Origin: an uncultured Clostridia bacterium
GTDB lineage: Bacteria > Bacillota > Clostridia > Christensenellales > UBA1242
Direction: 5' to 3'
Length of the DNA: 64,000 nucleotides
Assembly: GCA_947625515.1 (NCBI GenBank)
Contig: CANQOO010000002.1
Coordinates: 22,238 to 86,237, forward strand
Shown here: positions 26,544 through 40,632 of the stretch, piece by piece
Layout: each line of letters begins with the position of its first letter
How positions within the stretch are numbered: the first letter of the stretch is position 1
Made by a program: the position numbers and the translations under genes
The notes under the pieces: model-generated
The model's input: the letters and a program-made list of their open reading frames with translations, nothing else
Databases searched by the model: none
Told to the model about the DNA's origin: nothing

Positions 26544-26570
26544 TTATATAAATTTAAGTTTATAAATGAT
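26544..26570 (+). repeat. 27-bp direct repeat, putative attL
   Basis: TTATATAAATTTAAGTTTATAAATGAT, identical to 40421-40447. Confidence 0.9.
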
Positions 26571-26672
26571 TGTTATTTTGCAATATGTTTTTTAAAAATC
26601 GGTAAGAAATAGGTCTTGCCGATTTTTTAAGTCGATAGTCGGTTATTGATTTTAGGAAAGGAGGTGAGATTT

Positions 26673-26915
26673 TTGGCATCAAGAAGAGTAATGCGACGAA
26701 AAGTAGGACGCAAGGCCGTAACTGCAAAGAGTTTTTGTCGGAAACTTAATCAGGCTAATGATGTTTATTTGACAAAGACAAAAATTGCTGTAAGGCAAGT
26801 TAGGTCCGACTCTCGTGGTCGAATTTCTTCCGATACTACTAAGTATTATCCAAAGACAAAACAAAATTTGTCTTGTGCTGGGAAAATGCTTGGCCGTATT
26901 AGATACGGAAGATAA
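26673..26915 (+). CDS. small highly basic protein
   Basis: TTG start after GGAAAGGAGGTG RBS. ~80 aa rich in R/K (LASRRVMRRKVGRK). Confidence 0.55.
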   Translation: MASRRVMRRKVGRKAVTAKSFCRKLNQANDVYLTKTKIAVRQVRSDSRGRISSDTTKYYPKTKQNLSCAGKMLGRIRYGR

Positions 26916-26943
26916 AAAACAAAATCATAAAAGGAGTTGATTC

Positions 26944-27351
26944 TTGAAACAAAAAAAATATGTTCCTTGGGGAAGAACATTGACAACGCAAGACAATTTT
27001 TTGGGCAAACAACGGACAAATTCAAAGAAAAAAAGGCCGGTTGTCGTTATAGATAATAATGAAAGAAACGAATTAGCCGTTGTGCCCCTGTCTTCAAGAA
27101 GAGGTGCTAATCGCACTCGGTTGAAAAATTATCAACAGGGTCAATCATATTTTAAACATTTTGTTGAGATTGAAGATGACGAAGGAAAGCCTATTGTGAT
27201 TAATCGTAAGTTTCGAGAAAATCATAAAAACATGGATGTTTCTCAAAGAGATGTCTCTAGAATTCGTGATAAAGTTCTTTTTCACTCAAAACCTGGAAAA
27301 CAAAATCAAGAAAAGTTGAGAATTTTGAGAAATAAAAAATCTCGAGATTAA
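26944..27351 (+). CDS. PemK/MazF-fold-like protein (tentative)
   Basis: TTG start with AAGGAG RBS. KKKRPVVVIDNNERNELAVVPLSS resembles MazF RRPALVLS...GLALVCPITS. Tail VSQRDVSRIRDKV. Confidence 0.45.
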   Translation: MKQKKYVPWGRTLTTQDNFLGKQRTNSKKKRPVVVIDNNERNELAVVPLSSRRGANRTRLKNYQQGQSYFKHFVEIEDDEGKPIVINRKFRENHKNMDVSQRDVSRIRDKVLFHSKPGKQNQEKLRILRNKKSRD

Positions 27352-27457
27352 ACCACTCGAGACAATGCCGGAATAAACATCGGCGGGTATGCAATTTCTT
27401 GCAACTGTTGATATGTTATCACAAACAAATTTAAAAGTCAACGCTTTTTTAAAAAAA

Positions 27458-27471
27458 TTGCGACGTCGCAA
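27458..27471. promoter_or_regulatory. perfect 14-bp palindrome TTGCGACGTCGCAA (operator-like)
   Basis: Flanked by A/T runs in the 300-bp intergenic region inside the element. Confidence 0.4.
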
Positions 27472-27559
27472 AAAAAATTGCAGATGTCTTCTCCCCTTTG
27501 TCTGATTATTGCGGTTTTTACATGAGTTGTTTATGCCTAAGAAATTGGACAAACCAAAA

Positions 27560-27626
27560 CTGAATACGACTGTAAGCCCAAGCAATGCGTCTTGGCACAT
27601 ATGCGATAGTTGAAGTTGCTTTAAAT
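27560..27626 (+). repeat. ~65-nt conserved leader element, copy 1
   Basis: CTGAATACGACTGTAAGCCCAAGCAATGCGTCTTGGCACA...ATAGTTGAAGTTG, ~80 percent identical to 27879-27947. Contains the CCAAG-N8-CTTGG hairpin. Confidence 0.7.
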
Positions 27627-27649
27627 AAATCAAATTCAAGGAGTTTTTT

Positions 27650-27865
27650 ATGATAGTTGATGAAAATTATTTAATTGAAGATTTAGAAAATGTTCGAAAA
27701 ACACGTGAAGTAGAAGAAAAAGAGATTGCAAGACAAAGAAAGATTAACGATGAGTATAGTCTTTATAGATGTTTCTGCAAGTTGTGCGGATTTAAAATTT
27801 TTGAATATTCAAGTCTTTTAAATTTTCAAAATTATTGTAAAGAAAATTTAATTCAACTTATTTGA
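27650..27865 (+). CDS. small hypothetical protein (71 aa)
   Basis: AAGGAG RBS; acidic N-terminal half. Confidence 0.6.
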   Translation: MIVDENYLIEDLENVRKTREVEEKEIARQRKINDEYSLYRCFCKLCGFKIFEYSSLLNFQNYCKENLIQLI

Positions 27866-27878
27866 GTTGAGTTTTGAA

Positions 27879-27947
27879 CTGAATAAAACTGTAAGTCCAA
27901 ACAATGTGTCTTGGCACAAGGTCAATAGTTTAAGTTGATATTTAAAT
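27879..27947 (+). repeat. ~65-nt conserved leader element, copy 2
   Basis: CTGAATAAAACTGTAAGTCCAAACAATGTGTCTTGGCACA...ATAGTTTAAGTTG. Confidence 0.7.
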
Positions 27948-27990
27948 GAATTTTTTAAATTTAATTAAAAGGTTAAAAAGGTAAAGAACA

Positions 27991-28317
27991 ATGGCAAATT
28001 TTATAAAATCAATTAGAGAATTCGGAATGGTTATCTCAAAAAAATATGTTGAGGCAAGAGAGGCACGTAAAGGTTTTGACGGAAGAGAATGGGATGCACG
28101 TGATGAAGAATATCAAGTTGAAGTGATAAGCTGCGACCAGGATGATTTTAATAAGATTACTGGTATTCCAAACGGAACTCGTTGCACATATAAAGTCGAT
28201 AAAGCAACATTTGAAAAAGTTAAGTTTGGTGATTGGGCAAATGTGAAATATGAGATGTCACAATATAATGACAAAACATCTTATAAGCCACTTGCGTTTG
28301 CTCTTATTGAAAAATAA
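27991..28317 (+). CDS. hypothetical 108-aa protein (positional candidate for ssDNA-binding gene V analog)
   Basis: Size and position just before the small hydrophobic ORFs. No motif recognised. Confidence 0.6.
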   Translation: MANFIKSIREFGMVISKKYVEAREARKGFDGREWDARDEEYQVEVISCDQDDFNKITGIPNGTRCTYKVDKATFEKVKFGDWANVKYEMSQYNDKTSYKPLAFALIEK

Positions 28318-28331
28318 TTTATGGAGGTAAA

Positions 28332-28535
28332 ATGAACGAAATTTGTAAAGCCGTTTTGTATGTGCTTTTAGGAATGTTAGTTGCTGTTGGCATTTCCTGC
28401 CTTGTCATCTGCATTGGCAGTGCAGTTAATGGCATTGGTTTTGGTGAACAAATCACGCAGTGGTTCGGTTCTATTGGTCAAAAGGCACCAGAAGAGCTCG
28501 AAGCTGTGGGTTCGTTTTTGAAATCAGTTATTTAA
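28332..28535 (+). CDS. small membrane protein (67 aa), coat-protein candidate
   Basis: GGAGG RBS. One TM helix (VLYVLLGMLVAVGISCLVICIG). Followed by a strong terminator. Confidence 0.65.
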   Translation: MNEICKAVLYVLLGMLVAVGISCLVICIGSAVNGIGFGEQITQWFGSIGQKAPEELEAVGSFLKSVI

Positions 28536-28540
28536 GATTT

Positions 28541-28586
28541 AAAAAGCACCATCTAAGACGGACTATCTTATTTGGTGCTTTTTTAT
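28541..28586 (+). terminator. rho-independent terminator inside the element
   Basis: AAAAAGCACCA-N23-TGGTGCTTTTTTAT. Confidence 0.7.
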
Positions 28587-28601
28587 AACTAGGAGAAAAA
28601 A

Positions 28602-28760
28602 ATGAAAATTTTAATTTGGGTAATTTTAGTTACCGTTTTGACCGTTTTATTCGGGACTTGGATTTTAAGTGCACTTGCATGGGTTTTTGGAGCGATTGGC
28701 GATGGGCTTAATTTTATTGCAGGTTTCTTGGATTTCTTTGGTTGGAACGGCATGCTTTAA
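28602..28760 (+). CDS. 52-aa hydrophobic protein (below ORF-track cutoff)
   Basis: AGGAG RBS. My translation: MKILIWVILVTVLTVLFGTWILSALAWVFGAIGDGLNFIAGFLDFFGWNGML. Confidence 0.6.
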   Translation: MKILIWVILVTVLTVLFGTWILSALAWVFGAIGDGLNFIAGFLDFFGWNGML

Positions 28761-28771
28761 AAGGAGAGAAT

Positions 28772-30019
28772 GTGAAAGCAATAAAAACAATCGGTGAAAT
28801 TTGTTTGGTTTTTCTTGCTTGTTTTTCCATTTTAGTTTGCGGTCTTTTCATTTATTATCATTTTTTTGTTAATGATGTCACTATTGGTGTGAACAATATT
28901 GCTGACCAACTTGCAGTTGATGTTAAAAAGGAAGATGATTTAAGTGAAGAAGAAAAGAATGTATATGATGAGCGTTGGTTCCTGGAAGCCAATTATTATT
29001 CAAATGATAAAGAAAATGGAATTGAACTGCAAGAGTTAAATTTAAATTATTTTACTGGCTATAATTTGACAGAAAATGAATATCGTTCAACTGGAATGCA
29101 ATATGTTGGTCACTGGGAAAATTATAATGTTAAAGTTTCCAATATGGATGAGTTAAACAAATATGTTTATCCCGATTTTTACTATTATGATACATCAGAT
29201 CATATATCCTGGTCTGGACAAAATATTTCTTCTCGGCTTAACAGAAATCAAGCGTTTATTGTTAAAATTGACAATCGTCCATTTTTAATTCAACTTGATA
29301 AAAGTGTGCGAGTTGGTTGGTGGATTTTTGGCAGAGATCGTTATTACACTTATTCTATGCTTTTTGAAAGTGTTTTTGAGGCTATAGAGTCAAATTCTGC
29401 TGGCTATGGCGATTATTATATAACCGTTGATTTAAGCGAGATGTTTTCAGTCAGAGAATATGATTCTGAAAGTGAAAAGTTTTTGGACGATGATGTCACT
29501 GATATAATTAAAAATTATGCTGTTATGAAATTTCACTACGATGAAAATGGTGCTCGAAATAGCACGCAATCCATTTTTAAAAGCATTCAGTGTAGTTCAA
29601 AGTATGATTTGAATGACAAAGTGGATACGACTTATTGGCAAGAGCGAGTTGTTTATAGTTTGACTGAAAAAGATTTAATTTATCGTTATAGTTCCATATA
29701 TGACGGTTATTTCATGAGCCTTGGAATTGACTTTAAAGAAATGTTTGCAAATATGCCTCGAACAAAAGTTAATGTTGTTGTTGATTTGGATTCTGAGTTT
29801 ATGAAATCAAATAAATATAATGTTGTTGGCATTGATTACAATGGATTTGAGAATTTTGAAATTGACACTTTAACTATTTTGGGCAAGCCTCAAACTTTTC
29901 ATATTTTAGAGAAAGGCCTTTTTGGTTCCAATTTGCAGACTTTAAAACATTCTGTCGGCATTGGATTTGATAAAGCCCCTGATTCTTTTAACAATGAATA
30001 TTTGGAGGTGGTTGTATGA
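28772..30019 (+). CDS. N-terminally membrane-anchored protein, unknown (415 aa)
   Basis: GTG start after AAAGGAGAG RBS. TM helix ICLVFLACFSILVCGLFIYYHFF. Confidence 0.7.
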   Translation: MKAIKTIGEICLVFLACFSILVCGLFIYYHFFVNDVTIGVNNIADQLAVDVKKEDDLSEEEKNVYDERWFLEANYYSNDKENGIELQELNLNYFTGYNLTENEYRSTGMQYVGHWENYNVKVSNMDELNKYVYPDFYYYDTSDHISWSGQNISSRLNRNQAFIVKIDNRPFLIQLDKSVRVGWWIFGRDRYYTYSMLFESVFEAIESNSAGYGDYYITVDLSEMFSVREYDSESEKFLDDDVTDIIKNYAVMKFHYDENGARNSTQSIFKSIQCSSKYDLNDKVDTTYWQERVVYSLTEKDLIYRYSSIYDGYFMSLGIDFKEMFANMPRTKVNVVVDLDSEFMKSNKYNVVGIDYNGFENFEIDTLTILGKPQTFHILEKGLFGSNLQTLKHSVGIGFDKAPDSFNNEYLEVVV

Positions 30020-30546
30020 AATGGTATTCATATTTAATTTGTTTTATTCTTATTGCTTTAGGATGTTTTTGTGGAGTTCAATTGTATCAGGAATATACTG
30101 CTGAAAGTTATATAAATGGCTCAATCGATATTTCAAATAAGTTTAGTCAAGAAACTTTCAATTATTCAAGTTCAAGTGTTGTTTTTTATCATGATATTTA
30201 TGATGATTCTGACACCTATTCTTTTGAGATTGACCTTTTGAAAGTTGACAATTTTGATGGAACAAAAAATCAATATCAAGTGGAACTAAATGATTATGTT
30301 CTTACTGATTCTCAAATTTCTGCCGGCTCTGTTTTTTCAGTAATGAACATGGATTTTTACGATGTTCATGGTGATATTGTTTGCAATGCCAAGTTGAATA
30401 TTTCAGTGAAATTTTTAAGCAGCAAAACGGCATTGTCTTTGGTTGTTGTTGGAAACGAGCAAAAAAGCGGGCTTGAGCAATCTCGATTTTTTGAGCAGTA
30501 TTTTTCTGACAATGGTATCAGATTAAAAATTTTAAAAATTCTTTAA
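30016..30546 (+). CDS. N-terminally membrane-anchored protein, unknown (176 aa)
   Basis: ATGA overlap with the previous gene. TM helix YLICFILIALGCFCGVQLY. Confidence 0.7.
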   Translation: MKWYSYLICFILIALGCFCGVQLYQEYTAESYINGSIDISNKFSQETFNYSSSSVVFYHDIYDDSDTYSFEIDLLKVDNFDGTKNQYQVELNDYVLTDSQISAGSVFSVMNMDFYDVHGDIVCNAKLNISVKFLSSKTALSLVVVGNEQKSGLEQSRFFEQYFSDNGIRLKILKIL

Positions 30547-30561
30547 AAGGAGTGATTAAAA

Positions 30562-32964
30562 ATGACAACTAAGAAAATTTTAGGTGTTATATTTGGTCTT
30601 GTTTTTATTGGTGCTTTTGCTTTTGTTTTAACTTGGGGCATTTTAAATTGGCAGCAAGTGAAAGATGGAATGAGCGGCAGCGGCCTTTACACGCAGGAAG
30701 ATTTAAACAATGCGTATGATGATGGCTATAATTCTGCTTTAAAAGATAAGAGCGAATATGACGAATTGGTTAATGGTTATCGAGATGAGATAACAAGACT
30801 GATTGATGAAAATTCAAAAGCAAATAGCAATTATAATGATTTGCAAAAAGAAAATAAAAGTTTGCAAGCAAATATTTCTTCACTTGAAAGTGCTAAATCT
30901 GGGCTTCAAGAGCAGGTTAAAAATTATGAAAATCAAGTGCAAACTTTGAATTCAACAATCGCAGAAAATAATACAAAAATAAGCGATTATGAAAATCAAA
31001 TTTCTCAGAAAGAAAAAGAAATTGAGAGATTGAAAATAAGTGGGACTAGTAAGGACTCAGAAATTTCTAACTTAAATGTGCAAATTACAAGTCTTCGTAG
31101 TCAAATTTCGTCACTGCAAACTGTTACATCTCAGTTAGAGTCAACTAATCAAGCAAATTTGACAACAATTTCAAATTTAAACGCACAAATTGTTTCATTA
31201 AATGCACAGATTGTGACGTTGCAAAATCAATATCAAGGGAATCAAGACACAATTAGTGCTTTGAATGATAAGATTAAGCAACTTGAAAAATCCATTGAGT
31301 ATTATGAGCAGTTTATTGCTAATTTGGAAAGTGGTGAAAATGTTGTTGCAACTTTTGAGTTCAATGGTTCGGTTTACAGCATTCAAATTTTGCAAAAAGG
31401 TGGGAAAGTTCTTTTCCCGACACCGGAATCAACAACTTATGCAATTTTCAATTACTGGCAAACTGAGAGTGGAGAAAAAGTTCAAGATACTTCTTCTTAC
31501 ACCATCTCAGAAAATACAAAATTTGTAGCAAATGTCACATTGAAATTTGATGTTAAATTTAGTGTTGACGGAGTCGTTCGAGAAAGCCAAATTGTTGAAA
31601 ATGGGCAAAAGCCTTCTCTGCCATCCGAAACTCCATCTAAGGCCGGTTATGACTTTGACGGTTGGACATTAAATGGTGTTGACATTGTTGACCCTACACA
31701 GCAGTCAGTGACTCAAAACACAACTTATATTGCAAAATTTACGCAAAAGTTTACAGTTAACTTCATGTATGAGAGTGAAACAAAATCTACTCAAGAAGTT
31801 CGTAGTGGTGGACATGCCCAAAATGTTGAAATTGAAAGCACAACATATAAGAAATTCAACGGTTGGAAAGTTAATGGCGAAATTGTTAATGTTGAAGATT
31901 ATGAGATTGTTGGAGCTACAACATTTGTTGCAGATATAACTTACTATTACGATGTTAAGTTTATGGTTAATGGCGAGCAATATGGACAAACACAAACTAT
32001 TGAAGCCGGCAAATTTGCTTCAGTGCCTGGTGACCCGTCAATGGCTGGTTACGACTTTATGGGCTGGACAGTCAATGGCTCTGATATGGTCGATGTTGCA
32101 AGTTATTCAGTCAACACCACAACAACTTTTACAGCAAAATTTGTAAGCTTTAAATTTGAAAGTATTGAGATTAATTTCCCTACTCGTGCTAATAATATTC
32201 TTTTTCAAGATAAATTTAATGCATATTACGTTTGGTCAGACGGTGTAAACACTTATTTTTCTAGGTATGTATCATCCTCTAAACGTTCAATAAATCTTGT
32301 TTTTGACCATGAATCTTTGACTTGGAAAGAAAAGAAATGGAATGGATTTGAAAATCTTTCTGGAGAGTATGTTTGGTCAGATGGTGAGAATGTTTATTAC
32401 AGTGCTTATTCTACTCAGTATGTCTTGAATAAAGAAACTGACACATGGGAAGTTAAAACCTGGAATGGATTTAGTGAAATTGATGGTCAACATATTTGGA
32501 CAGACGGTGAGAATGTTTATTATTCTTCTGCCACAAATCAATATGTTTTAAATAAAGATTCTGATACATGGGAAGTTAAAACCTGGAATGGATTTAATAA
32601 TATTTTTGGAGAATATGTATGGACTGATGGAACAAATTTATATTATTCCTTAAATAATTCTTCTGCACAATATGTGTTAAATGTTGAAACATCCACTTGG
32701 GAAGAAAAAATTTGGGATGGCTTTGCTCCAGCTTACGGCGATTCAATTTGGAACTATAACAATAATGTTTATTATTCCCTTAATGATGTCAACTATGTTC
32801 TTGATAAGAAAACTGGAAAATGGGTTGAAATGAATTGGTCTGGTTTGCCTGAATCATTTAATTCTTCCTTAAAAAACAGGTGGACATGCGGAGACGATGT
32901 GTATGTTGCTTTTTATGACTCTGGAAAATATGTTTCATATGTTCTGACCAGGAGTGAAATTTGA
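30562..32964 (+). CDS. large anchored repeat protein (adsorption-protein candidate)
   Basis: 800 aa: TM helix, ~180-aa coiled coil, 4 Listeria-Bacteroides-type repeats (AGYDFDGWTLNG, KKFNGWKVNG, AGYDFMGWTVNG, FNYWQTESG), then ~6 repeats of YVWSDGENVYYS..QYVLNK.TDTWE.K.WNGF. Confidence 0.75.
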   Translation: MTTKKILGVIFGLVFIGAFAFVLTWGILNWQQVKDGMSGSGLYTQEDLNNAYDDGYNSALKDKSEYDELVNGYRDEITRLIDENSKANSNYNDLQKENKSLQANISSLESAKSGLQEQVKNYENQVQTLNSTIAENNTKISDYENQISQKEKEIERLKISGTSKDSEISNLNVQITSLRSQISSLQTVTSQLESTNQANLTTISNLNAQIVSLNAQIVTLQNQYQGNQDTISALNDKIKQLEKSIEYYEQFIANLESGENVVATFEFNGSVYSIQILQKGGKVLFPTPESTTYAIFNYWQTESGEKVQDTSSYTISENTKFVANVTLKFDVKFSVDGVVRESQIVENGQKPSLPSETPSKAGYDFDGWTLNGVDIVDPTQQSVTQNTTYIAKFTQKFTVNFMYESETKSTQEVRSGGHAQNVEIESTTYKKFNGWKVNGEIVNVEDYEIVGATTFVADITYYYDVKFMVNGEQYGQTQTIEAGKFASVPGDPSMAGYDFMGWTVNGSDMVDVASYSVNTTTTFTAKFVSFKFESIEINFPTRANNILFQDKFNAYYVWSDGVNTYFSRYVSSSKRSINLVFDHESLTWKEKKWNGFENLSGEYVWSDGENVYYSAYSTQYVLNKETDTWEVKTWNGFSEIDGQHIWTDGENVYYSSATNQYVLNKDSDTWEVKTWNGFNNIFGEYVWTDGTNLYYSLNNSSAQYVLNVETSTWEEKIWDGFAPAYGDSIWNYNNNVYYSLNDVNYVLDKKTGKWVEMNWSGLPESFNSSLKNRWTCGDDVYVAFYDSGKYVSYVLTRSEI

Positions 32965-33833: not shown

Positions 33834-34221
33834 AGAACTAACTGGTTTTTTATATGGCGAATATGAAAAAATGAGTGAAGCATATGGAACGAAACGACCA
33901 TCTAAAATTTTGATTGAGGGCACGGAAAAAACGTTGTTGCGTTATGCGAAACTATATAATAAGCCATTATACAAAAAAGCGAAAAGAAATTTAAGGCTGC
34001 AAGAGGCTTTTGATACAATGCCACATGGTTTTTGGTGGAAATTTTTCCACTCTGATTTGTGGAAACGCATGAAATATTTAGATGAAAATTTAAATAAGCA
34101 AAAAGCTAAATTGTGTAATGATGAGCAGCAAGATAATAATCATAAACAAGCAAACATGTCCGAGACATTGCCTGTGGAAGTTGTAAAAAATGTCTTTCCA
34201 CCGCAAGAGTTTGAAGATTAG
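33814..34221 (+). CDS. hypothetical protein (135 aa)
   Basis: Overlaps the Zot-like gene's 3-prime end; no family recognised. Confidence 0.55.
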   Translation: MKITEFEELTGFLYGEYEKMSEAYGTKRPSKILIEGTEKTLLRYAKLYNKPLYKKAKRNLRLQEAFDTMPHGFWWKFFHSDLWKRMKYLDENLNKQKAKLCNDEQQDNNHKQANMSETLPVEVVKNVFPPQEFED

Positions 34222-34251
34222 TTCTTTTGTTTGGGTTATTATTGTTATTGA

Positions 34252-34530
34252 GTGTGTGGTAATGTGGGAAAAGTGACGGACTTCCTTGCCGTTCTGCTTT
34301 CCACATTTCCAGGTATTGTGGGAAAGTGTGTAAAGTCTGACGGGCTTATATTTCTGCTTTCAGGACTTTTCCACTTTTCCAAAGTTGTCCATCATTTCCA
34401 CCATTATGCTTGCTTAATGGTGGGAATGTGGTCAACTGGTCAATACCCGATGAGCACACTGCTTACAAAGACGGGCTTTTAAAAAAGTTCCGCTTCGCTC
34501 ACGCGGTTGGCTTGCCCCCGCGTGAGCGGG
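34252..34530 (+). promoter_or_regulatory. putative replication origin: GTGGGAA/TTCCAC iterons plus GC-rich hairpin
   Basis: GTGGGAA(A) at ~34264, 34318, 34420. Inverted TTTCCAC at ~34298, 34368, 34395. Hairpin CGCTCACGCGG (34496-34506) / CCGCGTGAGCG (34518-34528). Confidence 0.5.
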
Positions 34531-34601
34531 TTGCTTACTTGACAATAGCAACACTTAAAGGAAAATTTTTAAAAATTATAACTTAAAGGAGATATGAAAA
34601 T

Positions 34602-35576
34602 GTGAGCGATTTAAGTTATAACTTGTATTCGACTGAACGGCGTTATCGAAACGAAACTTTAATAAGTTTTTACTTTCAGCCGAATGAAAAAATTATGAAG
34701 AAATGTCGCCCTGTTGATATTCACGGCGAACGTTTGAGGCTCTATAATGACGGAGTCCTTGAAAATTATAAAAAGAAAGATGTTTTAAACTCAAAAAGCA
34801 CAAGTTTAAGAAGAACTGTTGTTTTAATGAACATGCTCCTTGCAATGAATGATTTTGACTGGTTCTGGACCCTCACCTTTGACAGGCAAAAGATTGACAG
34901 GACAAATGCTGAACTTGTTTTTAATTGTTATAAGAAATATATTGATAACATTAAAAAGAAATTTCCTACATTTAAATATATGACTTTTCCCGAACGTCAT
35001 GAAGATGGGTGTTTTCACTTTCATTTACTTACTGCTGGACTTACTCCTTCGCAAATGGGCTTGGTTAATTCTGGAAAAGTTTGTTGTCACTGGGCGAAGA
35101 AAAGAAAAAGAGGTGGATGGGAATTTACAAAAAATTGTTCAAAAGAATTTTTTGATAAAACTAAACATGAGCATGAACTACTTGATACTGATGGAGAAAC
35201 GCTCTATAATGCAACAACTTTTGCATATGGACTTACTACTGTCAGTCGAATTGTGAGCCGCGAAAGATGTAATTCATATGTGAAAAAATATGTTGAAAAA
35301 GCACTTGGCTCAACTGAGATATTTAAAAAGCGATTTTATTATTCTTCAAATTTAAATGTGCCGGAGGTTGTAAAACGTCTTGTTGGGGCTGATTTTGAAA
35401 CTCCAACACAAATTGATGAAGTTTCAAGTGTTGTCAATAGCCCGCTTGTCAAAAACTCCAAAGGGCAACCTTATGTGAGCGAATATAACGTTCTGCAAGT
35501 AAAAATTGACAACGAAACAAAACAAAATATAGATAAAGGCTTATTGCCATGCGAATTTGACGATTTGCCTTTTTAA
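34602..35576 (+). CDS. HUH-superfamily rolling-circle replication initiator
   Basis: GTG start. Motif I FWTLTFD, motif II CFHFHLL, motif III YVKKYVEK. Confidence 0.75.
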   Translation: MSDLSYNLYSTERRYRNETLISFYFQPNEKIMKKCRPVDIHGERLRLYNDGVLENYKKKDVLNSKSTSLRRTVVLMNMLLAMNDFDWFWTLTFDRQKIDRTNAELVFNCYKKYIDNIKKKFPTFKYMTFPERHEDGCFHFHLLTAGLTPSQMGLVNSGKVCCHWAKKRKRGGWEFTKNCSKEFFDKTKHEHELLDTDGETLYNATTFAYGLTTVSRIVSRERCNSYVKKYVEKALGSTEIFKKRFYYSSNLNVPEVVKRLVGADFETPTQIDEVSSVVNSPLVKNSKGQPYVSEYNVLQVKIDNETKQNIDKGLLPCEFDDLPF

Positions 35577-35586
35577 AAGGATGTTT

Positions 35587-35811
35587 ATGTATTTTACAAA
35601 TAAAAATAAGAAAATGGCTAGACGCCCGTATGATTTTTTGGCTGAAGGGTATGATGCAAGTGAAATTGAATTAAAAAGGGCTTGTAAAAGCGGTGATAAA
35701 AAAGCTATGCGTTCAGCCATGAAAAATCATCATGATTTTGAATATGCTCTGCTTTATCGACTCACTCCAGAGTCTAAAAAAGAACGCAAAAGGAGATACA
35801 ATGGCAAATAA
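35587..35811 (+). CDS. small basic protein (74 aa)
   Basis: Start set at MYFTNKNKK after the Rep stop. Confidence 0.5.
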   Translation: MYFTNKNKKMARRPYDFLAEGYDASEIELKRACKSGDKKAMRSAMKNHHDFEYALLYRLTPESKKERKRRYNGK

Positions 35812-36637
35812 AGATTTAGATAAAAGAATTAAAGAAATAGAAAAACTTCTAAAAAGACACGAGGATGATATTTTGCAATTTATTGAAAAAGTTTATGGAA
35901 CGCTAGAAGGAAAATATAAGTTGCAACCACATCACGAATTCAAAGTCGGTGACCGCGTGCAATTTAAGTCGTGGGAAGAAATAGAAAAAGAGTTTGGAGT
36001 AAACGACTGTAATGGAAAGCCTTATATAAACACTTACCCTTGGTTTATTAAAGATATGGAATATTTATGCGGAACATACGCAACGATATCTAAAATTGAT
36101 GGACACAAAGTCGAATTAAAAGATTTTACAGCCAGAGCGGATAACAGTATTTGGACTTATTCTCTCGATATGCTCAAGCCAGCCACAGACGAACCAAAAT
36201 GCAAGTTTACGGTCGGGGATAAGGTTATATATAAAGATAAAAACGTAGTTGCTGAGATTGTAGAAATTTATCCAATGCTTTCGCTTGCAAAAATACGTTA
36301 TGAAATAAAAGAACATAGCGAAATGTCTGAATATACTATTGTTGTTAATTTTGAGCAGATAGAGACATACACCGAGCCGTGCTGGACTTTCACCGATGAC
36401 GAAAAAGTTATCCTTAAAAATTTGCCAGAAAAGTATAAGTGGATTGCGAGAGATAAAGATGGGTCTGTTCTTGTTTCTTTTTCAAAGCCATTCAAAGACG
36501 AAGATGAAGACATTTGGGATATCGATGATTATGAATATGGAGAAGTCCGAAGTTCTTACATCTGGCAATTCAACCATCTCTTTCAATCAATCAAATGGAC
36601 TGACGAAGAGCCTTGCGAGTTTAGAAAATACTTGTAG
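35801..36637 (+). CDS. hypothetical protein (278 aa)
   Basis: Start at MANKDLDK with AAGGAG RBS; no family recognised. Confidence 0.6.
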   Translation: MANKDLDKRIKEIEKLLKRHEDDILQFIEKVYGTLEGKYKLQPHHEFKVGDRVQFKSWEEIEKEFGVNDCNGKPYINTYPWFIKDMEYLCGTYATISKIDGHKVELKDFTARADNSIWTYSLDMLKPATDEPKCKFTVGDKVIYKDKNVVAEIVEIYPMLSLAKIRYEIKEHSEMSEYTIVVNFEQIETYTEPCWTFTDDEKVILKNLPEKYKWIARDKDGSVLVSFSKPFKDEDEDIWDIDDYEYGEVRSSYIWQFNHLFQSIKWTDEEPCEFRKYL

Positions 36638-36645
36638 GAGGAATT

Positions 36646-36825
36646 ATGGAAGCGTGGGTGATTAAAAGAAATGATGGAAAGTATTTTGATTCTGTTTATG
36701 GAGTATGGAGTAAATATTGGGGATATTTTTATGCCCTTAAAAAAAATGCACTGCATGACATAAATATTTGCAATTTACAAGGCTGCAAACCAGTCAAAGT
36801 GCGAATTGAGGAGGTGGAAGAATGA
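36646..36825 (+). CDS. 59-aa hypothetical protein (below ORF-track cutoff)
   Basis: AGGAGG RBS. MEAWVIKRNDGKYFDSVYGVWSKYWGYFYALKKNALHDINICNLQGCKPVKVRIEEVEE. ATGA overlap with the next gene. Confidence 0.5.
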   Translation: MEAWVIKRNDGKYFDSVYGVWSKYWGYFYALKKNALHDINICNLQGCKPVKVRIEEVEE

Positions 36826-37292
36826 TGGAAAAGAATTATTTTAATGGCGGTTGTATCGACTGTAAGTTTGCAGAAAGAGATGAGCGTGGAAGATTTGTTT
36901 CGCCATGTAGTGGTTACTCAAATTGTTCATGGGAAAAGTTTGAAGGCAAAGTTGACCCGCTCACCGAGGAAGAAAAATACCAACGCATAGCAGAGCTTGA
37001 AGAAGAAAGCTCAAAACTTCAAGAGCAGTTGAAAAATGCGATTGTTCTACCTAAAAATTTTGATATTGGGCAAACAGTGTTTATGATACCTTCTAAAAGT
37101 AATGGATTAATAAATATTACTGCTTATAAAATTCTTTGTTTCTCAAAGAGTGAAATAGGTTTTAGGGCAGATTTGTCTCTTATAAAGAAAGGAAAGGGCC
37201 TGGAGCCATATTTTTCTGCAAGTTTTGAAATGTTTAACAAAATTATTTTTGCCAACGAAGCCAAAGCACAAAAATACTTAATAGGAGTCTAA
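36822..37292 (+). CDS. hypothetical protein with Cys-rich N-terminus (156 aa)
   Basis: CIDCKF...SPCSGYSNC possible metal site, followed by a coiled segment. Confidence 0.6.
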   Translation: MMEKNYFNGGCIDCKFAERDERGRFVSPCSGYSNCSWEKFEGKVDPLTEEEKYQRIAELEEESSKLQEQLKNAIVLPKNFDIGQTVFMIPSKSNGLINITAYKILCFSKSEIGFRADLSLIKKGKGLEPYFSASFEMFNKIIFANEAKAQKYLIGV

Positions 37293-37293
37293 A

Positions 37294-37992
37294 ATGGAAA
37301 ATTTTAATAGATTTAATCTTTCTCGGGATTTAATTCAACTTGACGGTTCACCTGTAAATGAACTTCAAGCTTTAATAAATCAACTTGATAAATGCTTTGC
37401 AAAAGAGAATAACAATTTCGCTGAAATTTGTTTTGTTGTTTTTCGTATAAGAAAATTGTTTGATGATTACAAGCAGGTTTGTGTTTTTAAAAATGATAAA
37501 CTTTTATATAATTTTGATTCGATTATGCAGGGCTTTGGAATTGGCAAAACTGAAAGTAGCCGAATTCTGAGCGTTTTTGAAAAATTTTGTTGCTTATCTT
37601 GTAGTGATTTAAATAATGCAAAATGTAGTATTATTGATGATTTTAAGGGCTTTTCAAAATCGAAACTTTTTGAACTTTTGCAAGTTGATTCTAAGCAAAT
37701 TATTATCGACTTGCAAAATAAAGTTTTGCGTTTTGATTTTTCAGTTAAGCAAATTCGCGAATATGTAAAAAACTATCAGGCACAGCAGCGTGCAAATAAA
37801 CGACTTACTGAGGAAGATACGGTTGATTTGCCAGATGAGATTGATGAGAGTCAAATTCCGATGGCTTATGAGCCGGAAAAAGAATATGAGTTTTCATATT
37901 TTGAAACAAAAACAAAATCGCAACTTCTCAATATGATTTGGGATTTGCAAAAAGCATATCAAAAACTTAAAAGGGAGAAAAGAAAGAAATGA
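37294..37992 (+). CDS. hypothetical protein (232 aa)
   Basis: Tight coupling to neighbours; possible HTH GIGKTESSRILSVFEKF. Confidence 0.6.
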   Translation: MENFNRFNLSRDLIQLDGSPVNELQALINQLDKCFAKENNNFAEICFVVFRIRKLFDDYKQVCVFKNDKLLYNFDSIMQGFGIGKTESSRILSVFEKFCCLSCSDLNNAKCSIIDDFKGFSKSKLFELLQVDSKQIIIDLQNKVLRFDFSVKQIREYVKNYQAQQRANKRLTEEDTVDLPDEIDESQIPMAYEPEKEYEFSYFETKTKSQLLNMIWDLQKAYQKLKREKRKK

Positions 37993-38159
37993 AAGAGAGA
38001 ATTGTTAAAAATGAAAATAAAAAAATAAACGAACTAGAAATCCGAGTTGAATTATTAAAGTCAACATTGAAAGTCTATCAAGCTATAACTGAGTTTTTAC
38101 ATTGCTGTGCACAAAATGGGAAATCCAATTATGATATTGATATTGATATAGATTTTTAA
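37989..38159 (+). CDS. 56-aa hypothetical protein (below ORF-track cutoff)
   Basis: ATGA overlap. MKERIVKNENKKINELEIRVELLKSTLKVYQAITEFLHCCAQNGKSNYDIDIDIDF. Confidence 0.45.
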   Translation: MKERIVKNENKKINELEIRVELLKSTLKVYQAITEFLHCCAQNGKSNYDIDIDIDF

Positions 38160-38171
38160 TTTTATTGCAGT

Positions 38172-38207
38172 AAAAAACTAGGTCGTTTATTGGCCTAGTT
38201 TTTTTAT
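38172..38207. terminator. bidirectional terminator
   Basis: AAAAACTAGG-N11-CCTAGTTTTTTT between convergent genes. Confidence 0.7.
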
Positions 38208-38213
38208 TGTTTT

Positions 38214-38648
38214 TTATCCAAATTTTACACTTTGCCCCAATTTTATTGGAGTTAATTTGTAAAATAATTTATCTTCTTCGATGTTTAGTAGAGAAGTATA
38301 GATTATTAATTTATTTTTATCGTAAGCCTTTACAATAAAACTTTCGTTTTTTGTATATGTTTCATCATTAAAAACGATTCTAAGTGCGGTTTGATATTCA
38401 TGTTCACCTTGTTTATACTCAAAATCGTTTACTGAAATTATTTTGTCTTCTTGACAAGTTATATTTATGATATAGCAAATTGAAGTCTGTGTTTCTGGAT
38501 TTCGATAATAATCGGTCATTGAGATTGTGTAACTTTGTTTTTCTCTTATGTAAAAAACATTTGTGCCTATGACCACTATAATGAAAATTCCTAAAAGAAT
38601 CGATAAAATGATTATTGCGATTTTTTGTTTTTTGATTGTTTTTTCCAT
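38214..38648 (-). CDS. N-terminally anchored membrane protein (144 aa)
   Basis: TM helix IAIIILSILLGIFIIVVIG; opposite strand to the phage-like module. Confidence 0.65.
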   Translation of the reverse strand: MEKTIKKQKIAIIILSILLGIFIIVVIGTNVFYIREKQSYTISMTDYYRNPETQTSICYIINITCQEDKIISVNDFEYKQGEHEYQTALRIVFNDETYTKNESFIVKAYDKNKLIIYTSLLNIEEDKLFYKLTPIKLGQSVKFG

Positions 38649-38683
38649 TTATGTACCTCTATGATATTTTTTTCATTGTTTTT

Positions 38684-39091
38684 TTATTTGTAAATATTAA
38701 TTTCATCTTCAATCAGTGTTAAGTTTTTAAATTTGATTGAAATTTGATTACTTTTTTTCTCGGTTATGACTCTCAATCTAATGTTTTGTGTTTCGTTTGC
38801 TTCGATTGTTGGCTGCAAATAAAAAGTTTCTTCATATTCAAATAAGAATGAAAATTCAGTTATGTCTTGATTGTTAAGTTTAATTTCAAAGTCATTCTTT
38901 TGAATAATTTGTTCTTGGTTTGTTCTGTTGCAAAATTGTATTGTAAAATCCAAGCAAAAATCTTGTGCATTTTTCCTTTCACTAATTGAAAGTCTTTCAA
39001 ATTTTGCTGAAATATTTTCAGTATTGCAACCTACAAGTAAAAATGTTAAAATGCAAATAGGAATTATTATTATTTTGATAAATTTCTTCAT
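38684..39091 (-). CDS. lipoprotein (135 aa)
   Basis: Signal plus lipobox ILTFLLVGC. Confidence 0.65.
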   Translation of the reverse strand: MKKFIKIIIIPICILTFLLVGCNTENISAKFERLSISERKNAQDFCLDFTIQFCNRTNQEQIIQKNDFEIKLNNQDITEFSFLFEYEETFYLQPTIEANETQNIRLRVITEKKSNQISIKFKNLTLIEDEINIYK

Positions 39092-39239
39092 GTTATACCT
39101 CTTTTGCTTTTTTTATTATATCTTTTGGAGGAGTTTTGTCAAGTAAAAAATGATTTTTTTTGTCGAAATTGCTATAAATTTTATTTTTTTTGTTTTGTTT
39201 ACTTTTTGTTATTAATTTTCTTTTTGGAGGTTTGATTTT

Positions 39240-40228
39240 ATGAAAAAGAATAAAAAGATTTATATTAGAGCCTATTCCGCTGAAGAAAAACTTAAAGCGT
39301 TAAACTTATTAAAAAACTGTTCATTCGAGTTTGTTGCTCATAGATATCATTGCACAATACAATCTTTGTATCGCTGGAAGAAATTATATAATGGCTCTTT
39401 GGACAGTTTGCAGCCAAAATATTGTGCACCTTATACTCCTCATCCTAATCGACATTCTGAGGAAGAGATTAAGCATATTAGAGATTTAATAAAAAGAAAT
39501 TCTCATATTGGACTGAATGAATTATATGGCAAGTTGCGTTTGCATTACGGTTATACTAGACATCCATCAAGTTTATATCGTTTTTTAAGAAAACATGGCT
39601 ATTATGAGGCTATTAAAAAACAAAATAAGTATGTGCCACAACATTATGAAACTCCTGCAAGACTGGGCATGAAATGGCAGTTGGATGTTAAGTATGTCCC
39701 GCGAAGTTGTTATGTCGGAGATTTTAAGGATGAAAAAAGATTTTTTCAATACACTGTCATTGATGAGGCAACTCGCGAACGTTTTATTTATCCATATGAA
39801 GAGCAATGTCCACAATCAACAATCGACTTTGTTCGAAGGGCTATTGCATTCTTTCATTATAAGCCTAAGCAAATTCAAACTGATAATGGTGCTGAATTTA
39901 CATATCTTTTACAAACAAAACATGATAAAAACATCTTTTTGATTTGTTTTGTGAAAAGTATAATATTGAGCATAAGCTTATAAAGCCTCGAACTCCTCGA
40001 CATAATGGTAAGGTCGAGCGTTCGCATCGGAATGATAATGAAAGATTTTACAAATGGTTAAAATTTTATTCATATGAAGATTTAAAATTGCAAATGAAGG
40101 CTTATCTTGAAAGGTCAAATAATATTCCAATTTCAGTTTTAAGGACTCGTGATAATAAAACATCCTGGCTTACACCTATGCAAAAGCGTGCAGAATTGCT
40201 GCTTTTAGATTATGGAATAAAAGAATGA
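39240..40228 (+). pseudogene. IS481-like DDE (rve) transposase, split by a frameshift near 39925-39945
   Basis: HTH N-terminus. WQLDVKYV (D), IQTDNGAEF (D) in frame 1. KPRTPRHNGKVERSHR (E) in ORF 39944-40228. Frames switch at GATAAAAACATCTTTTTG. Confidence 0.7.
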
Positions 40229-40255
40229 AAAACGGCCGGATTTGGTCAACAGCGG

Positions 40256-40285
40256 TCGAAATTTCGAACTTCCCCTAGGGGAAGT
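40256..40285. other. two abutting perfect palindromes (TCGAAATTTCGA + ACTTCCCCTAGGGGAAGT)
   Basis: 12-bp and 18-bp palindromes just after the transposase stop. Could be a terminator or an IS end. Confidence 0.5.
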
Positions 40286-40420
40286 AGTGTTTTATTGTAA
40301 AAAAATAAATTTTTTTAAAAAATCTGTTAAATTTGCTTGACATATAAATTTATTAGAATTATACTTTAAACAAGATTTATTTTTTTACTATATTTTTAAA
40401 AAACAAATAGAAATTCTTCA

Positions 40421-40447
40421 TTATATAAATTTAAGTTTATAAATGAT
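40421..40447 (+). repeat. 27-bp direct repeat, putative attR
   Basis: Identical to 26544-26570. Confidence 0.9.
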
Positions 40448-40599: not shown

Positions 40600-40632
40600 T
40601 AAAAAAAGCGTGTCAAATTGATACGCTTTCAT
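40600..40632 (-). terminator. groESL terminator
   Basis: Minus strand AAAGCGTATCAATTTGACACGCTTTTTTT. Confidence 0.65.

Follow-up and report, generated by a model that had tools for sequence, protein, structure and literature searches.

Genomic setting of the island

The window, i.e. the whole 64,000-nt stretch of Clostridia DNA that was analysed, carries a 13.85-kb island between the rpsF promoter and the groEL terminator. We found that a 27-mer, TTATATAAATTTAAGTTTATAAATGAT, is present in exactly two copies in the window (26544–26570 and 40421–40447), even with 3 mismatches tolerated, and gives 0 matches in 100 shuffles. As originally predicted, the two copies bracket the island. The 27-mer is not a common genomic repeat: no match was found across 185,579 species-representative genomes and IMG/VR. 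GC content is 0.25–0.37 inside the island versus ~0.42 outside, and GC skew is positive in the island and negative in the flanks. DNA homology between the window and a related element, L105, starts at 26568 and stops at 40420, where the 27-mers have their inner edges. The left copy begins 4 nt upstream of the –35 box of the host rpsF promoter (TTGACA-17-TAAAAT, TG-extended; 26539–26511, minus strand), which lies outside the element, and the hairpin of the groEL terminator is located at 40605–40629. Both flanking features had been predicted correctly.

Left arm and candidate structural genes

Just within the left end, a 14-bp-stem hairpin between an A-run and a T-run (26594–26627; –16.6 kcal/mol, z = –5.0) resembles a bidirectional terminator and is kept in L105. 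All genes from here to the right arm are on the plus strand. The first encodes a very basic protein without family match (26646–26915; 89 aa, 25 K+R). It is followed by a basic 135-aa protein (26944–27351) with a weak, sub-threshold PemK/MazF-like N-terminal match, which is conserved in L105 (85%) and located elsewhere in L133, L136 and L122. A 71-aa ORF (27650–27865) lies between two 82% identical copies of a 61-nt repeat (27558–27618 and 27877–27937, plus strand), both kept in L105.

A 108-aa core protein at the gene V position (27991–28317) is a candidate ssDNA-binding protein; an OB-like beta-barrel is predicted for it, with weak fold matches (E 0.02–0.1). Next come a 67-aa protein with one TM-like segment (28332–28535), a candidate major coat protein, and a hydrophobic 52-aa protein (28602–28760), which may serve as a minor coat protein or in assembly. 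The gene for the former is followed by a hairpin and T-run (28541–28583, plus strand; –18.1 kcal/mol, z = –7.1), located where Ff phages have the terminator after gene VIII. Two tiny hydrophobic ORFs, the first with a strong terminator, had been expected here. Three consecutive proteins with one N-terminal hydrophobic anchor each, also anticipated, are encoded downstream: core proteins of 415–425 aa (28742–30019; without family match) and 176 aa (30016–30546), and an 800-aa candidate receptor-binding protein at the gene III position (30562–32964). The latter contains a coiled coil, Flg_new (Listeria-Bacteroides) repeats (PF09479, 63.3 bits) and C-terminal YxWxDGxNxYYS repeats.

Zot, Rep and a putative origin

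A Zot/pI-type P-loop ATPase is encoded at 32961–33833 (40.8 bits on PF05707, gathering score 20.3; 7.8e–19 on phrog_197). Its Walker A and Walker B residues are invariant. A conserved 135-aa core protein (33814–34221) always follows it. An HUH rolling-circle Rep is encoded at 34602–35576 (36.1 bits on PF23343, gathering score 27.8; 7.5e–14 on phrog_3419). It carries FWTLTF, H139-F-H141 and Y226-VK-K229-Y230, and the motifs FxTLTF, HUH and YxxKY are invariant among 20 homologues. Upstream of rep, a putative replication origin (34250–34535, plus strand) comprises three copies of GGTAATGTGGGAAA, two inverted partners TTTCCACATTTCCA and a hairpin with an 11-bp perfect stem (34496–34528; –26.1 kcal/mol). 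Both enzymes and the iteron and hairpin region ahead of rep confirm the original prediction, and the profile scores of Zot and Rep support an inovirus-like prophage between the two 27-mers. Most island genes indeed lack a described family. The size of 13.9 kb had been called large for a Gram-positive inovirus; it is ordinary for this clade (11.3–13.85 kb).

A Rep and a Zot-like ATPase might also belong to a transposon-borne, plasmid-like element that forms no filamentous particles, for example a membrane/surface-protein cassette spreading only by transposition or mobilisation. The Zot differs from Ff pI in having no TM segment, neither of the two small hydrophobic proteins ends in the basic C-terminus typical of classical major coat proteins, and among deposited phages the closest Zot shares only 34% identity. 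Moreover, none of the 11–14-kb contigs is circular. We nevertheless consider such an element unlikely, because the gene order parallels that of Ff phages (OB-like protein; small membrane protein with terminator; anchored proteins, one of which is large, adhesin-like and rich in repeats; ATPase) and is kept over a large clade in which Zot and Rep have >100 homologues each. The Pfam and PHROG matches of both proteins are inovirus families, and genome size, single-strand coding and the Zot-Rep pair are criteria by which inoviruses are called (PMC6813254). Taken as an inovirus-like prophage, the element represents, judging by its genes, an undescribed phage lineage. Its core gene order is shared by >10 relatives; IMG/VR is nearly devoid of them and holds only one relative of the Zot (53% identity).

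Right arm and DDE transposase

The accessory right arm (35587–38159, plus strand) encodes proteins of 74, 278–301, 59, 156, 232 and 56 aa. Of these, only that of 232 aa (37294–37992) is kept clade-wide, and the region ~35587–37292 has no counterpart in L105 at the DNA level. A bidirectional terminator (38172–38204; –20.3 kcal/mol) separates the plus-strand operon from a moron-like minus-strand cassette (38214–39142), which encodes a putative 135-aa lipoprotein with an LVGC lipobox (38684–39091) and a 144-aa N-terminally anchored protein (38214–38648) behind a promoter that matches the consensus at 12/12 positions (39142–39115, minus strand). An outward-facing promoter (TTGACA-17-TATACT; 40337–40365, plus strand) lies 55 bp inside the right end and is kept in L105, L107 and L128–L130.

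Between the cassette and this promoter we found a split pseudogene of an IS481-like, rve-type DDE transposase (39240–40228, plus strand). One A is gone from an A6 run (A5 at 39927–39931), and the frame shifts after ~residue 230; the same run is A6 in L105 and L107. Of the catalytic triad D149/D215/E260, the first two residues fall in 39240–39983 and the third in 39944–40228. Since the frameshift parts them, the window copy is most likely unable to move by itself, a fixed insertion upstream of rpsF. An intact 329–331-aa HTH_32+rve+rve_3 gene occupies the same right-edge position in L105, L107, L108, L128–L132 and L136. Intact genes are found in the three closest relatives by Rep (74–85%) and in two further lineages (71–76%). 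Position and orientation are constant in the five lineages, and the Rep/transposase identities to the window fall in step (85/84, 78/78, 76/75, 74/73 and 71/76%). The best NCBIfam model is IS481 (167 bits, short of the equivalog cut-off of 224 bits), versus only 29.7 bits for ISNCY_2.

Profile scans of the 20 main island ORFs gave no match to a tyrosine or serine recombinase domain, as the original prediction had stated. It had, however, called the element integrase-less and treated a decayed DDE transposase at the right edge as a mere fallback. The gene is there and is split, but given that it is intact at the same place in all five related lineages sharing it, comparison of the sequences identifies it as the lineage's own integration enzyme. 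One could instead expect an ordinary IS to have inserted within an inovirus prophage, or at its border, with the prophage ends and the 27-bp repeat having another origin. Roux et al. 2019 could not distinguish domesticated from selfish transposases in inovirus genomes (PMC6813254), and an unrelated IS30-family gene occupies the same edge in other clade members. A related transposase in L139 (40–55% identical), which has no Zot or Rep homologue, is flanked by short inverted repeats ~1 kb apart that may mark an ordinary IS. In the window, however, inverted-repeat ends and duplication enclose the entire phage rather than the gene, and no second copy of either end, beside the gene or elsewhere, and no second transposase were found in the 64 kb. 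The fixed position and orientation, the divergence parallel to Rep and the movement of a complete 11.75-kb unit (see below) make a chance IS very improbable and argue for a transposase that belongs to the phage.

Element ends and target-site duplications

The element termini are imperfect ~30-bp inverted repeats with TG...CA ends. The left one, TGTTATTTTGCAATATGTTTTTTAAAAATC (26571–26600, plus strand), matches the reverse complement of the right one (40391–40420, plus strand; ...GAAATTCTTCA-3') at 21/30 positions, and across the elements compared 16–21/30 positions pair. Seven insertions each have their own perfect flanking direct repeat of 25–27 bp (window, L129, L130 and L136, 27 bp; L108 and L128, 26 bp; L105, 25 bp), with a boundary ambiguous by 1–2 nt in four elements. 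The seven sequences are mutually unrelated, 76–96% A+T, and directly adjoin conserved ends (TGTTAT... and ...TTCTTCA or ...ATATACA). L128, L129 and L130 are 99.94–99.95% identical across 11.75 kb, with no similarity between their flanks; on this sequence evidence, the unit has moved whole at least three times.

Seven unrelated duplications abutting conserved TG...CA ends identify the 27-bp repeat, at the sequence level, as a target-site duplication from insertion rather than the attachment site that had been implied. Because of the duplication, the rpsF promoter retains its native 27 bp upstream. Unrelated sites, each with its own duplication, and one phage inserted thrice are explained only by a staggered-cut (transposition) mechanism. 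The alternative is a 27-bp att core used for site-specific integration, with a recombinase (Xer-type or tyrosine/serine) that is encoded by the host or acts in trans and with the DDE gene a decayed passenger. Such a mechanism would fit the lack of a tyrosine or serine recombinase in the island and the use of host XerCD by some inoviruses; another clade member, L095, carries a tyrosine integrase, and Roux et al. 2019 class any direct repeat ≥10 bp as 'non-canonical att' (PMC6813254). However, a fixed core and a host recombinase, as first proposed for the window, cannot yield seven unrelated duplications. Over the seven insertions the repeats keep a constant length but differ in sequence, they are situated beyond the conserved ends, and the 99.9%-identical phage occupies three sites with three unrelated 26–27-bp repeats. 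GC skew has the same sign in both flanks, so the locus is not a terminus or dif region; no XerC/XerD-arm-type dif organisation is seen in the 27-mer by eye, and its absence from the species-representative genomes also speaks against this mechanism. Integration at an att core is thus extremely improbable.

In favour of transposition, IS481/IS1202-type enzymes have TGT...ACA ends and discrete duplication classes of ~4–6, 15 and 24–29 bp (PMC10045372, PMC10132070). Points against it are the IS481 score below the cut-off, the ambiguous repeat boundaries and the duplications of 2–15 bp reported for prokaryotic IS481 members (PMC10045372), a range that those found here exceed. Genome, IMG/VR and related sequence searches revealed neither an empty site nor a circular junction for any member; we infer insertion and excision of the element from sequence.

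Proposed life cycle

Overall, we suggest, with a probability of about 80%, that 26571–40420 (13,850 bp) is a prophage, that it belongs to an uncultivated lineage of inovirus-like phages from gut Clostridia, and that its whole genome is a single transposable unit. The substrate would be a double-stranded replicative circle in which the element ends are brought together. The transposase would expose 3'-CA ends and join them to an AT-rich target with a stagger of 25–27 bp, and gap repair would leave the target duplicated. By analogy with IS3/IS481-type elements, copy-out from the prophage might produce a new circle. The HUH Rep would amplify the circle in rolling-circle mode, starting at the iteron and hairpin region, the 108-aa OB-like protein may coat the ssDNA, and the filament could be exported by the Zot/pI-type ATPase together with the small membrane proteins and the three anchored proteins. 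Phage-side and chromosome-side coverage, taken from contig names, is similar in four samples (3.91/3.12, 3.84/3.61, 4.24/4.50 and 3.45/3.57), which suggests that the window copy is probably grounded (quiescent).

Comparison with known systems

Filamentous prophages with a self-encoded transposase are already known, namely Spiroplasma vespertilioviruses and IS110-bearing Neisseria and Acinetobacter phages. What is new in the present lineage is that a Rep and a DDE enzyme occur together, along with a very long duplication. Like the window element, sequences of the IS481 family, IS481EU and the IS1202 group have an HTH + rve DDE enzyme and TG(T)...(A)CA ends, but they are 1–1.7 kb long and encode only the transposase, whereas the unit in this lineage is a complete 11–14-kb phage genome. 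IS1202-group enzymes are also longer (441–457 aa, TnsB-like, versus 329–331 aa). In Mu-like transposable tailed phages, as in this lineage, the phage genome is a DDE transposon that duplicates its target at random-like sites. Mu, however, has a tail and a dsDNA genome of 37 kb, replicates via transposition, leaves duplications of 5 bp and lacks a rolling-circle Rep.

The uncultivated Bacillota inoviruses of Roux et al. 2019 share with the window element a pI/Zot-like ATPase, a short same-strand block and a flanking direct repeat (PMC6813254). Transposases were observed in those genomes and pooled as 'integration or selfish element', and the repeats were named 'non-canonical att sites' (PMC6813254); in the window lineage, in contrast, the repeats prove to be target duplications that go with a DDE enzyme inherited along with the phage.

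Vespertilioviruses (Vespertiliovirus, Plectroviridae; Spiroplasma SpV1-R8A2B, C74 and SkV1) are ssDNA phages, filamentous or rod-shaped, from the Bacillota/Mollicutes branch. They carry a gene for a DDE transposase of the rve type and use transposition for integration or replication; the genome they package is seen as a circular intermediate of this process (ICTV profile, PMC8295915). Among named phage proteins, the vespertiliovirus ORF3 transposase comes closest to ours, although the kinship is only distant (31% identity over 47%, E 1e–9). Vespertilioviruses have the transposase in place of a Rep, whereas this lineage has both, with HUH motifs intact, and a larger genome (11.3–13.85 kb versus 4.5–8.3 kb). 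Their hosts are wall-less Mollicutes, while relatives of the window element reside in spore-forming Clostridia; SpoIVA and Spo0A are found in the flanks of related elements.

Neisseria Nf/MDA and Acinetobacter Af1 integrate by an IS110/Piv-type (DEDD) transposase (PMC11209303 and its ref. 54) and, like the window lineage, rely on this self-encoded enzyme and not on a tyrosine/serine integrase or XerCD. DEDD enzymes form a different catalytic class, with no terminal inverted repeats, no target duplication and specific repeat targets (PMC11209303), whereas the window lineage combines a DDE enzyme with inverted-repeat ends, 25–27-bp duplications and many different AT-rich targets.

A repeat-bounded island between rpsF and groEL

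The 27-mer TTATATAAATTTAAGTTTATAAATGAT occurs in the window at 26544–26570 and 40421–40447 only, even when three mismatches are allowed, and 100 shuffles gave no such repeat (0 matches). The enclosed island (26571–40420) spans 13,850 bp, compared to 11.3–13.7 kb in relatives, and has a GC content of 0.25–0.37 versus ~0.42 outside its 13.85 kb. It carries about 20 genes, all except two on the plus strand, a compact layout, almost entirely single-stranded in coding, of a size within the roughly 5–20 kb of inovirus-like filamentous phages. GC skew is positive within the island and negative in the flanks. This contrast fits the coding strands, as island genes lie on the plus strand and flanking host genes on the minus strand.

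On the left, the minus-strand genes rpsF, ssb and rpsR follow one another; the true start of rpsF is at 26438, behind a clean ribosome binding site. The rpsF promoter (TTGACA-17-TAAAAT) occupies 26539–26511, hence the left repeat begins 4 nt upstream of the –35 box. On the right lie groEL and groES, also on the minus strand, with the groEL terminator hairpin at 40605–40629. The original prediction was accurate on all of these points: the two occurrences of the 27-mer bounding the island, its distance from the –35 box, and the flanks formed by the groESL terminator and the rpsF-ssb-rpsR promoter. No tRNA gene was found at the island junctions, an Rfam scan gave no match, and the exact 27-mer has no match in GTDB species representatives or IMG/VR.

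Filamentous phage genes

A Zot/pI-type P-loop ATPase is encoded at 32961–33833 (PF05707, 40.8 bits, gathering threshold 20.3; phrog_197, 7.8e–19), and 32 homologues all keep its Walker A (G7, G12, K13) and Walker B (D103, E104) residues. An HUH rolling-circle initiator, Rep, is encoded at 34602–35576 (PF23343, 36.1 bits, gathering threshold 27.8; phrog_3419, 7.5e–14), with motifs FxTLTF, HxH (H139/H141) and YxxKY (Y226/K229/Y230) invariant in 20 homologues. Both had been proposed from the bare sequence and are confirmed by these profile searches and motifs. The same is true of the iteron and hairpin region ahead of rep, an origin-like region in which we found three copies of GGTAATGTGGGAAA, two inverted partners and a perfect hairpin with an 11-bp stem. 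No transmembrane segment was detected in the 290-aa Zot (no 19-residue window with a Kyte-Doolittle mean ≥1.6), in contrast to pI of Ff phages, which has a membrane-spanning segment.

The upstream core genes encode, in order, proteins of 108, 67, 52, 425, 176 and 800 aa. The 67- and 52-aa proteins each have a TM-like segment, and the three larger ones have a single N-terminal anchor apiece; the 800-aa protein also contains a coiled coil and Flg_new repeats. A strong hairpin with a T-run lies 3' of the 67-aa gene (–18.1 kcal/mol, z = –7.1), the same arrangement as after gene VIII of Ff phages. The expected succession of two small hydrophobic ORFs, the first followed by a strong terminator, and three N-anchored proteins is thus present. 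From its position, either small protein is a weak candidate for the major coat protein, and both lack a basic C-terminus and a profile match. The assignment of the 108-aa protein to ssDNA binding is likewise weak: it was modelled as a beta-barrel (pLDDT 81.5), and the best PDB neighbours are mainly OB-fold ssDNA-binding proteins (SSB, RPA, PriB, CST; weak matches with E 0.02–0.1 and TM 0.4–0.5), which is suggestive of a candidate ssDNA-binding protein of the gene V type.

The two minus-strand genes (38214–39091) encode a putative lipoprotein with an LVGC lipobox and an N-terminally anchored protein. A bidirectional terminator sets apart their cassette (38214–39142), which has a perfect 12/12 consensus sigma-70-type promoter, is moron-like and may serve superinfection exclusion. 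When 10 island ORFs, including nine cargo ORFs, were scanned for defence systems, a single marginal match came up, and this cassette had no defence-family match. As originally stated, no tyrosine or serine recombinase domain was found in the main island ORFs scanned.

Direct repeats of constant length and varying sequence

DNA homology between the window and L105, the contig with the closest relative by Rep, extends from 26568 to 40420, that is, to the inner edges of the 27-mers. A systematic scan yielded seven elements with perfect flanking repeats: 27 bp in the window and in contigs L129, L130 and L136, 26 bp in L108 and L128, and 25 bp in L105 (with a sequence unlike that of the window), the boundary being ambiguous by 1–2 nt in four elements whose repeat ends with T or starts with A. 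The seven repeats are mutually unrelated in sequence, 76–96% A+T, and abut conserved tips 5'-TGTTAT... and ...TTCTTCA-3' or ...ATATACA-3'. Compared as inverted repeats, the ends of the seven elements match at 16–21 of 30 positions. The elements in L128, L129 and L130 are one phage (99.94–99.95% identical over 11.75 kb) present in three contexts, the flanks of which have no detectable similarity.

A constant length and a varying sequence outside TG...CA inverted-repeat ends are what a staggered-cut DDE target duplication produces. On these sequence comparisons, we take the 27-mer to be a target-site duplication and rule out an att core. Integration of the XerCD/dif type, as in CTXphi, was considered and rejected: the seven duplications have no common core, and the sign of the GC skew stays the same from one flank to the other. 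The original prediction therefore stands in what it observed, the 27-mer and the hallmark genes, and is not supported in its integrase-less, implicitly att-type reading of the island, given the seven unrelated duplications and a split DDE gene that is intact in the closest relatives.

Searches for an empty site gave the following. In neither of the two species representatives closest by GroEL (89% and 81% identical) does groEL adjoin rpsF, and every contig of the same species that has an identical RpsF or Rep contains the island. The exact GroEL sequence has no database match, and the reconstructed pre-insertion sequences of all seven elements have no uninterrupted match among the fetched loci. 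The best empty-site lead is contig L091 (ERZ27249567), which has an identical RpsF. Its DNA is only 93.9% identical to the window and hence comes from a related strain or species; the contig begins at the rpsF start codon, so occupancy of the site is not visible. In L105 (2331–2621 and 13933–14436), the insertion apparently splits a host ORF: the right-flank ORF crosses the duplication and stops at a TGA made by the element's terminal TCA, and the left-flank ORF starts inside the other duplication copy.

An IS481-like transposase

Two plus-strand pieces at 39240–39983 and 39944–40228 are parts of one rve-type DDE transposase gene. Its domains (HTH_32, rve, rve_3) correspond to an N-terminal HTH and an RNase-H-fold DDE core, and the catalytic triad was located as D149/D215/E260 in the L105 homologue. 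IS481 is the best model for this intact homologue (NF033577, 167.1 bits, under the 224 equivalog cut-off), far over the IS3, IS21 and ISNCY models; ISNCY_2 gave 29.7 bits versus a cut-off of 250. The window fragments score 110.4 and 53.8 bits on NF033577.

Enzymes of the IS481/IS1202 type make discrete classes of duplications (~4–6, 15 and 24–29 bp) and have TGT...ACA ends (PMC10045372). The island ends agree with the TG(T)...(A)CA inverted repeats of the IS481 family. However, prokaryotic IS481 duplications are reported to measure 2–15 bp (PMC10045372) versus 25–27 bp in 7/7 insertions here. The latter class fits the duplications of the IS1202 group, given as 16–28 bp with no evident target motif (PMC10132070) or as 24–29 bp. 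In turn, IS1202 family enzymes are TnsB-like and 441–457 aa long, compared to 329–331 aa here. Being too short for IS1202 and making duplications too long for prokaryotic IS481, the enzyme is IS481-like and a member of neither family.

From the sequence evidence we argue that the transposase gene is probably the phage's own rather than that of a nested IS. The whole genome lies between the ends and the two copies of the duplication, the 64 kb contain neither an internal copy of either end nor a second transposase, and Rep and transposase diverge together. For the five relative lineages closest by Rep, Rep/transposase identities to the window are 85/84 (L105), 78/78 (L107), 76/75 (L128–L132), 74/73 (L108) and 71/76% (L136), and all five have an intact 329–331-aa HTH_32+rve+rve_3 gene at the position of the split copy. 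Transposase homologues also stand alone in two unannotated faecal 'Bacteriophage sp.' records that lack Zot and Rep. One of these has short inverted repeats ~1 kb apart and no convincing long duplication, and is perhaps an ordinary IS.

The window copy carries a lesion. The stretch GATAAAAACATC has five A at 39927–39931, and its counterpart GATAAAAAACAT in L105 and L107 has six. With one nucleotide deleted, the reading frame changes after ~residue 230, at a point between D215 and E260. L003, an independent assembly, is 100% identical over this stretch and so has the same lesion. Programmed frameshifting was rejected: the gene is one uninterrupted ORF in all relatives, and the run of A measures just 5–6 nt. 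Coverage of phage-side versus chromosome-side contigs, taken from contig names in four samples, was 3.91/3.12, 3.84/3.61, 4.24/4.50 and 3.45/3.57; such near-equal values give no sign of extra-chromosomal copies. Most likely, the window copy is grounded unless aided in trans.

Relatives and host

The flanking GroEL shares 89% identity with its counterpart in an uncultured human-gut Clostridia MAG and ~71% with the one in Candidatus Coproplasma. One ENA study and two Logan runs supplied the contigs that encode an identical Rep or RpsF; these are ~100% identical to the window and have the island in the same place wherever they cover a junction. There are more than 400 Zot and Rep homologues, with >100 of each at 45–85% identity; those of Zot are all without a source name, and the handful of named Rep entries bear the label 'hypothetical protein'. 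Among deposited phages, the nearest Zot has 34% identity. The conserved core order is a ~108-aa protein, small membrane protein(s), ~415-aa and ~175-aa proteins, a large repeat protein, Zot, a ~135-aa protein and Rep, and the right arm of relatives encodes a ~232-aa protein.

The clade shows module shuffling. L095 has a tyrosine integrase and an HTH repressor, and L092 and L133 have an IS30-family gene; the edge transposase of L092 is unrelated to that of the window. In the L099 subclade, a Rep_1 (PF01446) initiator (11550–12560) takes the place of PF23343. The Zot-position protein of L108 (8442–9260) and L136 (7252–7968) is 29–30% identical to that of the window and has no Pfam match on record. 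Clade members with the IS30-family gene at the right edge start with TGTAAAGTTTTATTC. L133 has a 15-bp direct repeat, AAAATTTTTTATGCG (2677–2691, 14894–14908), beside a gene that looks tRNA-like by eye, and its element lies ~1.7 kb upstream of groES-groEL; from this single example with both ends, the repeat may be a 15-bp duplication.

The island had no megablast match among 50,697 deposited phages. Single-protein scans of IMG/VR with Zot and Rep found nothing, and profile scans of IMG/VR and JGI metagenomes found fragments or distant relatives only. No terminal overlap was seen in the 10.7–20.9-kb contigs tested for circularity, and abutted-end patterns are absent from IMG/VR. L092, reported identical in 6 samples, was rejected as a circle: its left end is a host gene, read as nrdD, that does not continue across the join.

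Comparison with known phages

The closest precedent is Vespertiliovirus (Spiroplasma phages SpV1/C74), for which ICTV describes a transposase instead of Rep and a packaged genome that is a circular transposition intermediate (PMC8295915). Its ORF3 is the nearest named phage homologue of the transposase (31% identity over 47%). Vespertilioviruses have no Rep, a wall-less Mollicute host and genomes of 4.5–8.3 kb, whereas the island has a Rep with intact catalytic motifs beside the transposase, a Clostridia-like GroEL flank and 13.85 kb. Filamentous phages of Neisseria and Acinetobacter differ in using IS110-type DEDD enzymes, without inverted repeats or duplications (PMC11209303). Our literature search found no paper tying IS481-type enzymes to filamentous phages. 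In the 11–14-kb genomes of this lineage from walled Clostridia, an IS481-like DDE enzyme and a 25–27-bp duplication occur together with a rolling-circle Rep.

The main inovirus survey reported transposases in inovirus genomes without distinguishing domesticated from selfish ones, and called simple flanking repeats non-canonical att sites (Roux et al. 2019, PMC6813254). For one large gut clade, our data address the question of passenger or machinery left open there: the transposase is the integration machinery and the whole phage is the transposon. Simple direct repeats have been used to mark the limits of many predicted inovirus prophages; they can be target duplications, and the host range and insertion preferences of such prophages should then be read differently. 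Moreover, the very long (~25 bp) duplication class, known in the IS1202 group and eukaryotic IS481EU, extends to a short prokaryotic IS481-like enzyme, a compact system for studying how the two strand transfers of a DDE enzyme come to lie two and a half helical turns from each other. As insertion is not site-specific, such phages can land by essential promoters (here rpsF) or inside genes (apparently in L105) and hence are potential insertional mutagens of abundant uncultured gut Clostridia.

Possible life cycle

The sequences show inverted-repeat ends, duplications of 25–27 bp, a unit that has moved repeatedly as a whole, a DDE gene inherited along with it, and Rep and Zot motifs that are intact. 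Neither a circular contig nor a virome record was found. We put at about 80% the probability that the island is a transposable inovirus-like prophage, with the 27-mer as its target-site duplication and its transposase frameshifted; that the element is something other than a virus appears to us quite improbable.

For a transposable prophage, the substrate of the transposase would be a double-stranded replicative circle with abutted ends, integration would be a paste-in with a ~26-bp stagger, and re-emergence might proceed by copy-out, by analogy with IS3/IS481-type elements. Rep would then amplify the circle, and the Zot-centred module would export ssDNA filaments. An outward-facing promoter (40337–40365) lies 55 bp inside the right end and is kept in L105, L107 and L128–L130. 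In a circle, it would read over the junction into the left-end genes, meeting a conserved bidirectional hairpin (26594–26627) first, so left-end expression could differ between circular and integrated forms. In L108 and L136, the right tip has TTGACA and the left tip TACAAT, each at a distance of 8 nt; joining these ends with a 0–2-nt spacer would give a consensus junction promoter, TTGACA-N16–18-TACAAT, as in IS circles.

A bolder joint reading, which we consider rather unlikely, is that the circle is an IS-type transposition intermediate, formed by copy-out without leaving the chromosome and returned by paste-in, with ~26 nt of host record between its ends, a junction promoter, and the first ~26-bp stagger of a prokaryotic IS481-like enzyme. 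If this were true, each round would leave the abutted ends separated by ~26 nt from the host flank, so that free phage genomes would carry a readable record of their last site, end joining in L108 and L136 would also assemble a promoter, and the enzyme would be the first of its kind shown to stagger by ~26 bp, coupled to rolling-circle replication in one genome.

Additional observations

A 61-nt direct repeat (27558–27618 and 27877–27937; 82% identical) flanks a 71-aa ORF, and both copies are kept in L105. Each copy has a small CCAAG...CTTGG hairpin and a TTGGCAC motif, without an Rfam match; the repeats could serve as paired regulatory sites, encode a small RNA or act as a minus-strand origin. 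Two contigs of sample ERZ27249395 overlap by 55 bp, one beginning at 27244 and the other ending at 27298, where a contig of a second sample ends too. The break looks like an assembly-graph branch inside a 135-aa PemK-like ORF, maybe due to a second related copy of the gene family in the community, as homologues occupy other positions in L133, L136 and L122. Outside the element, a 453-aa minus-strand ORF (44996–46357) with collagen triple-helix repeats (PF01391) sits in a 1-kb stretch with a GC content of 0.596, far over the window average.
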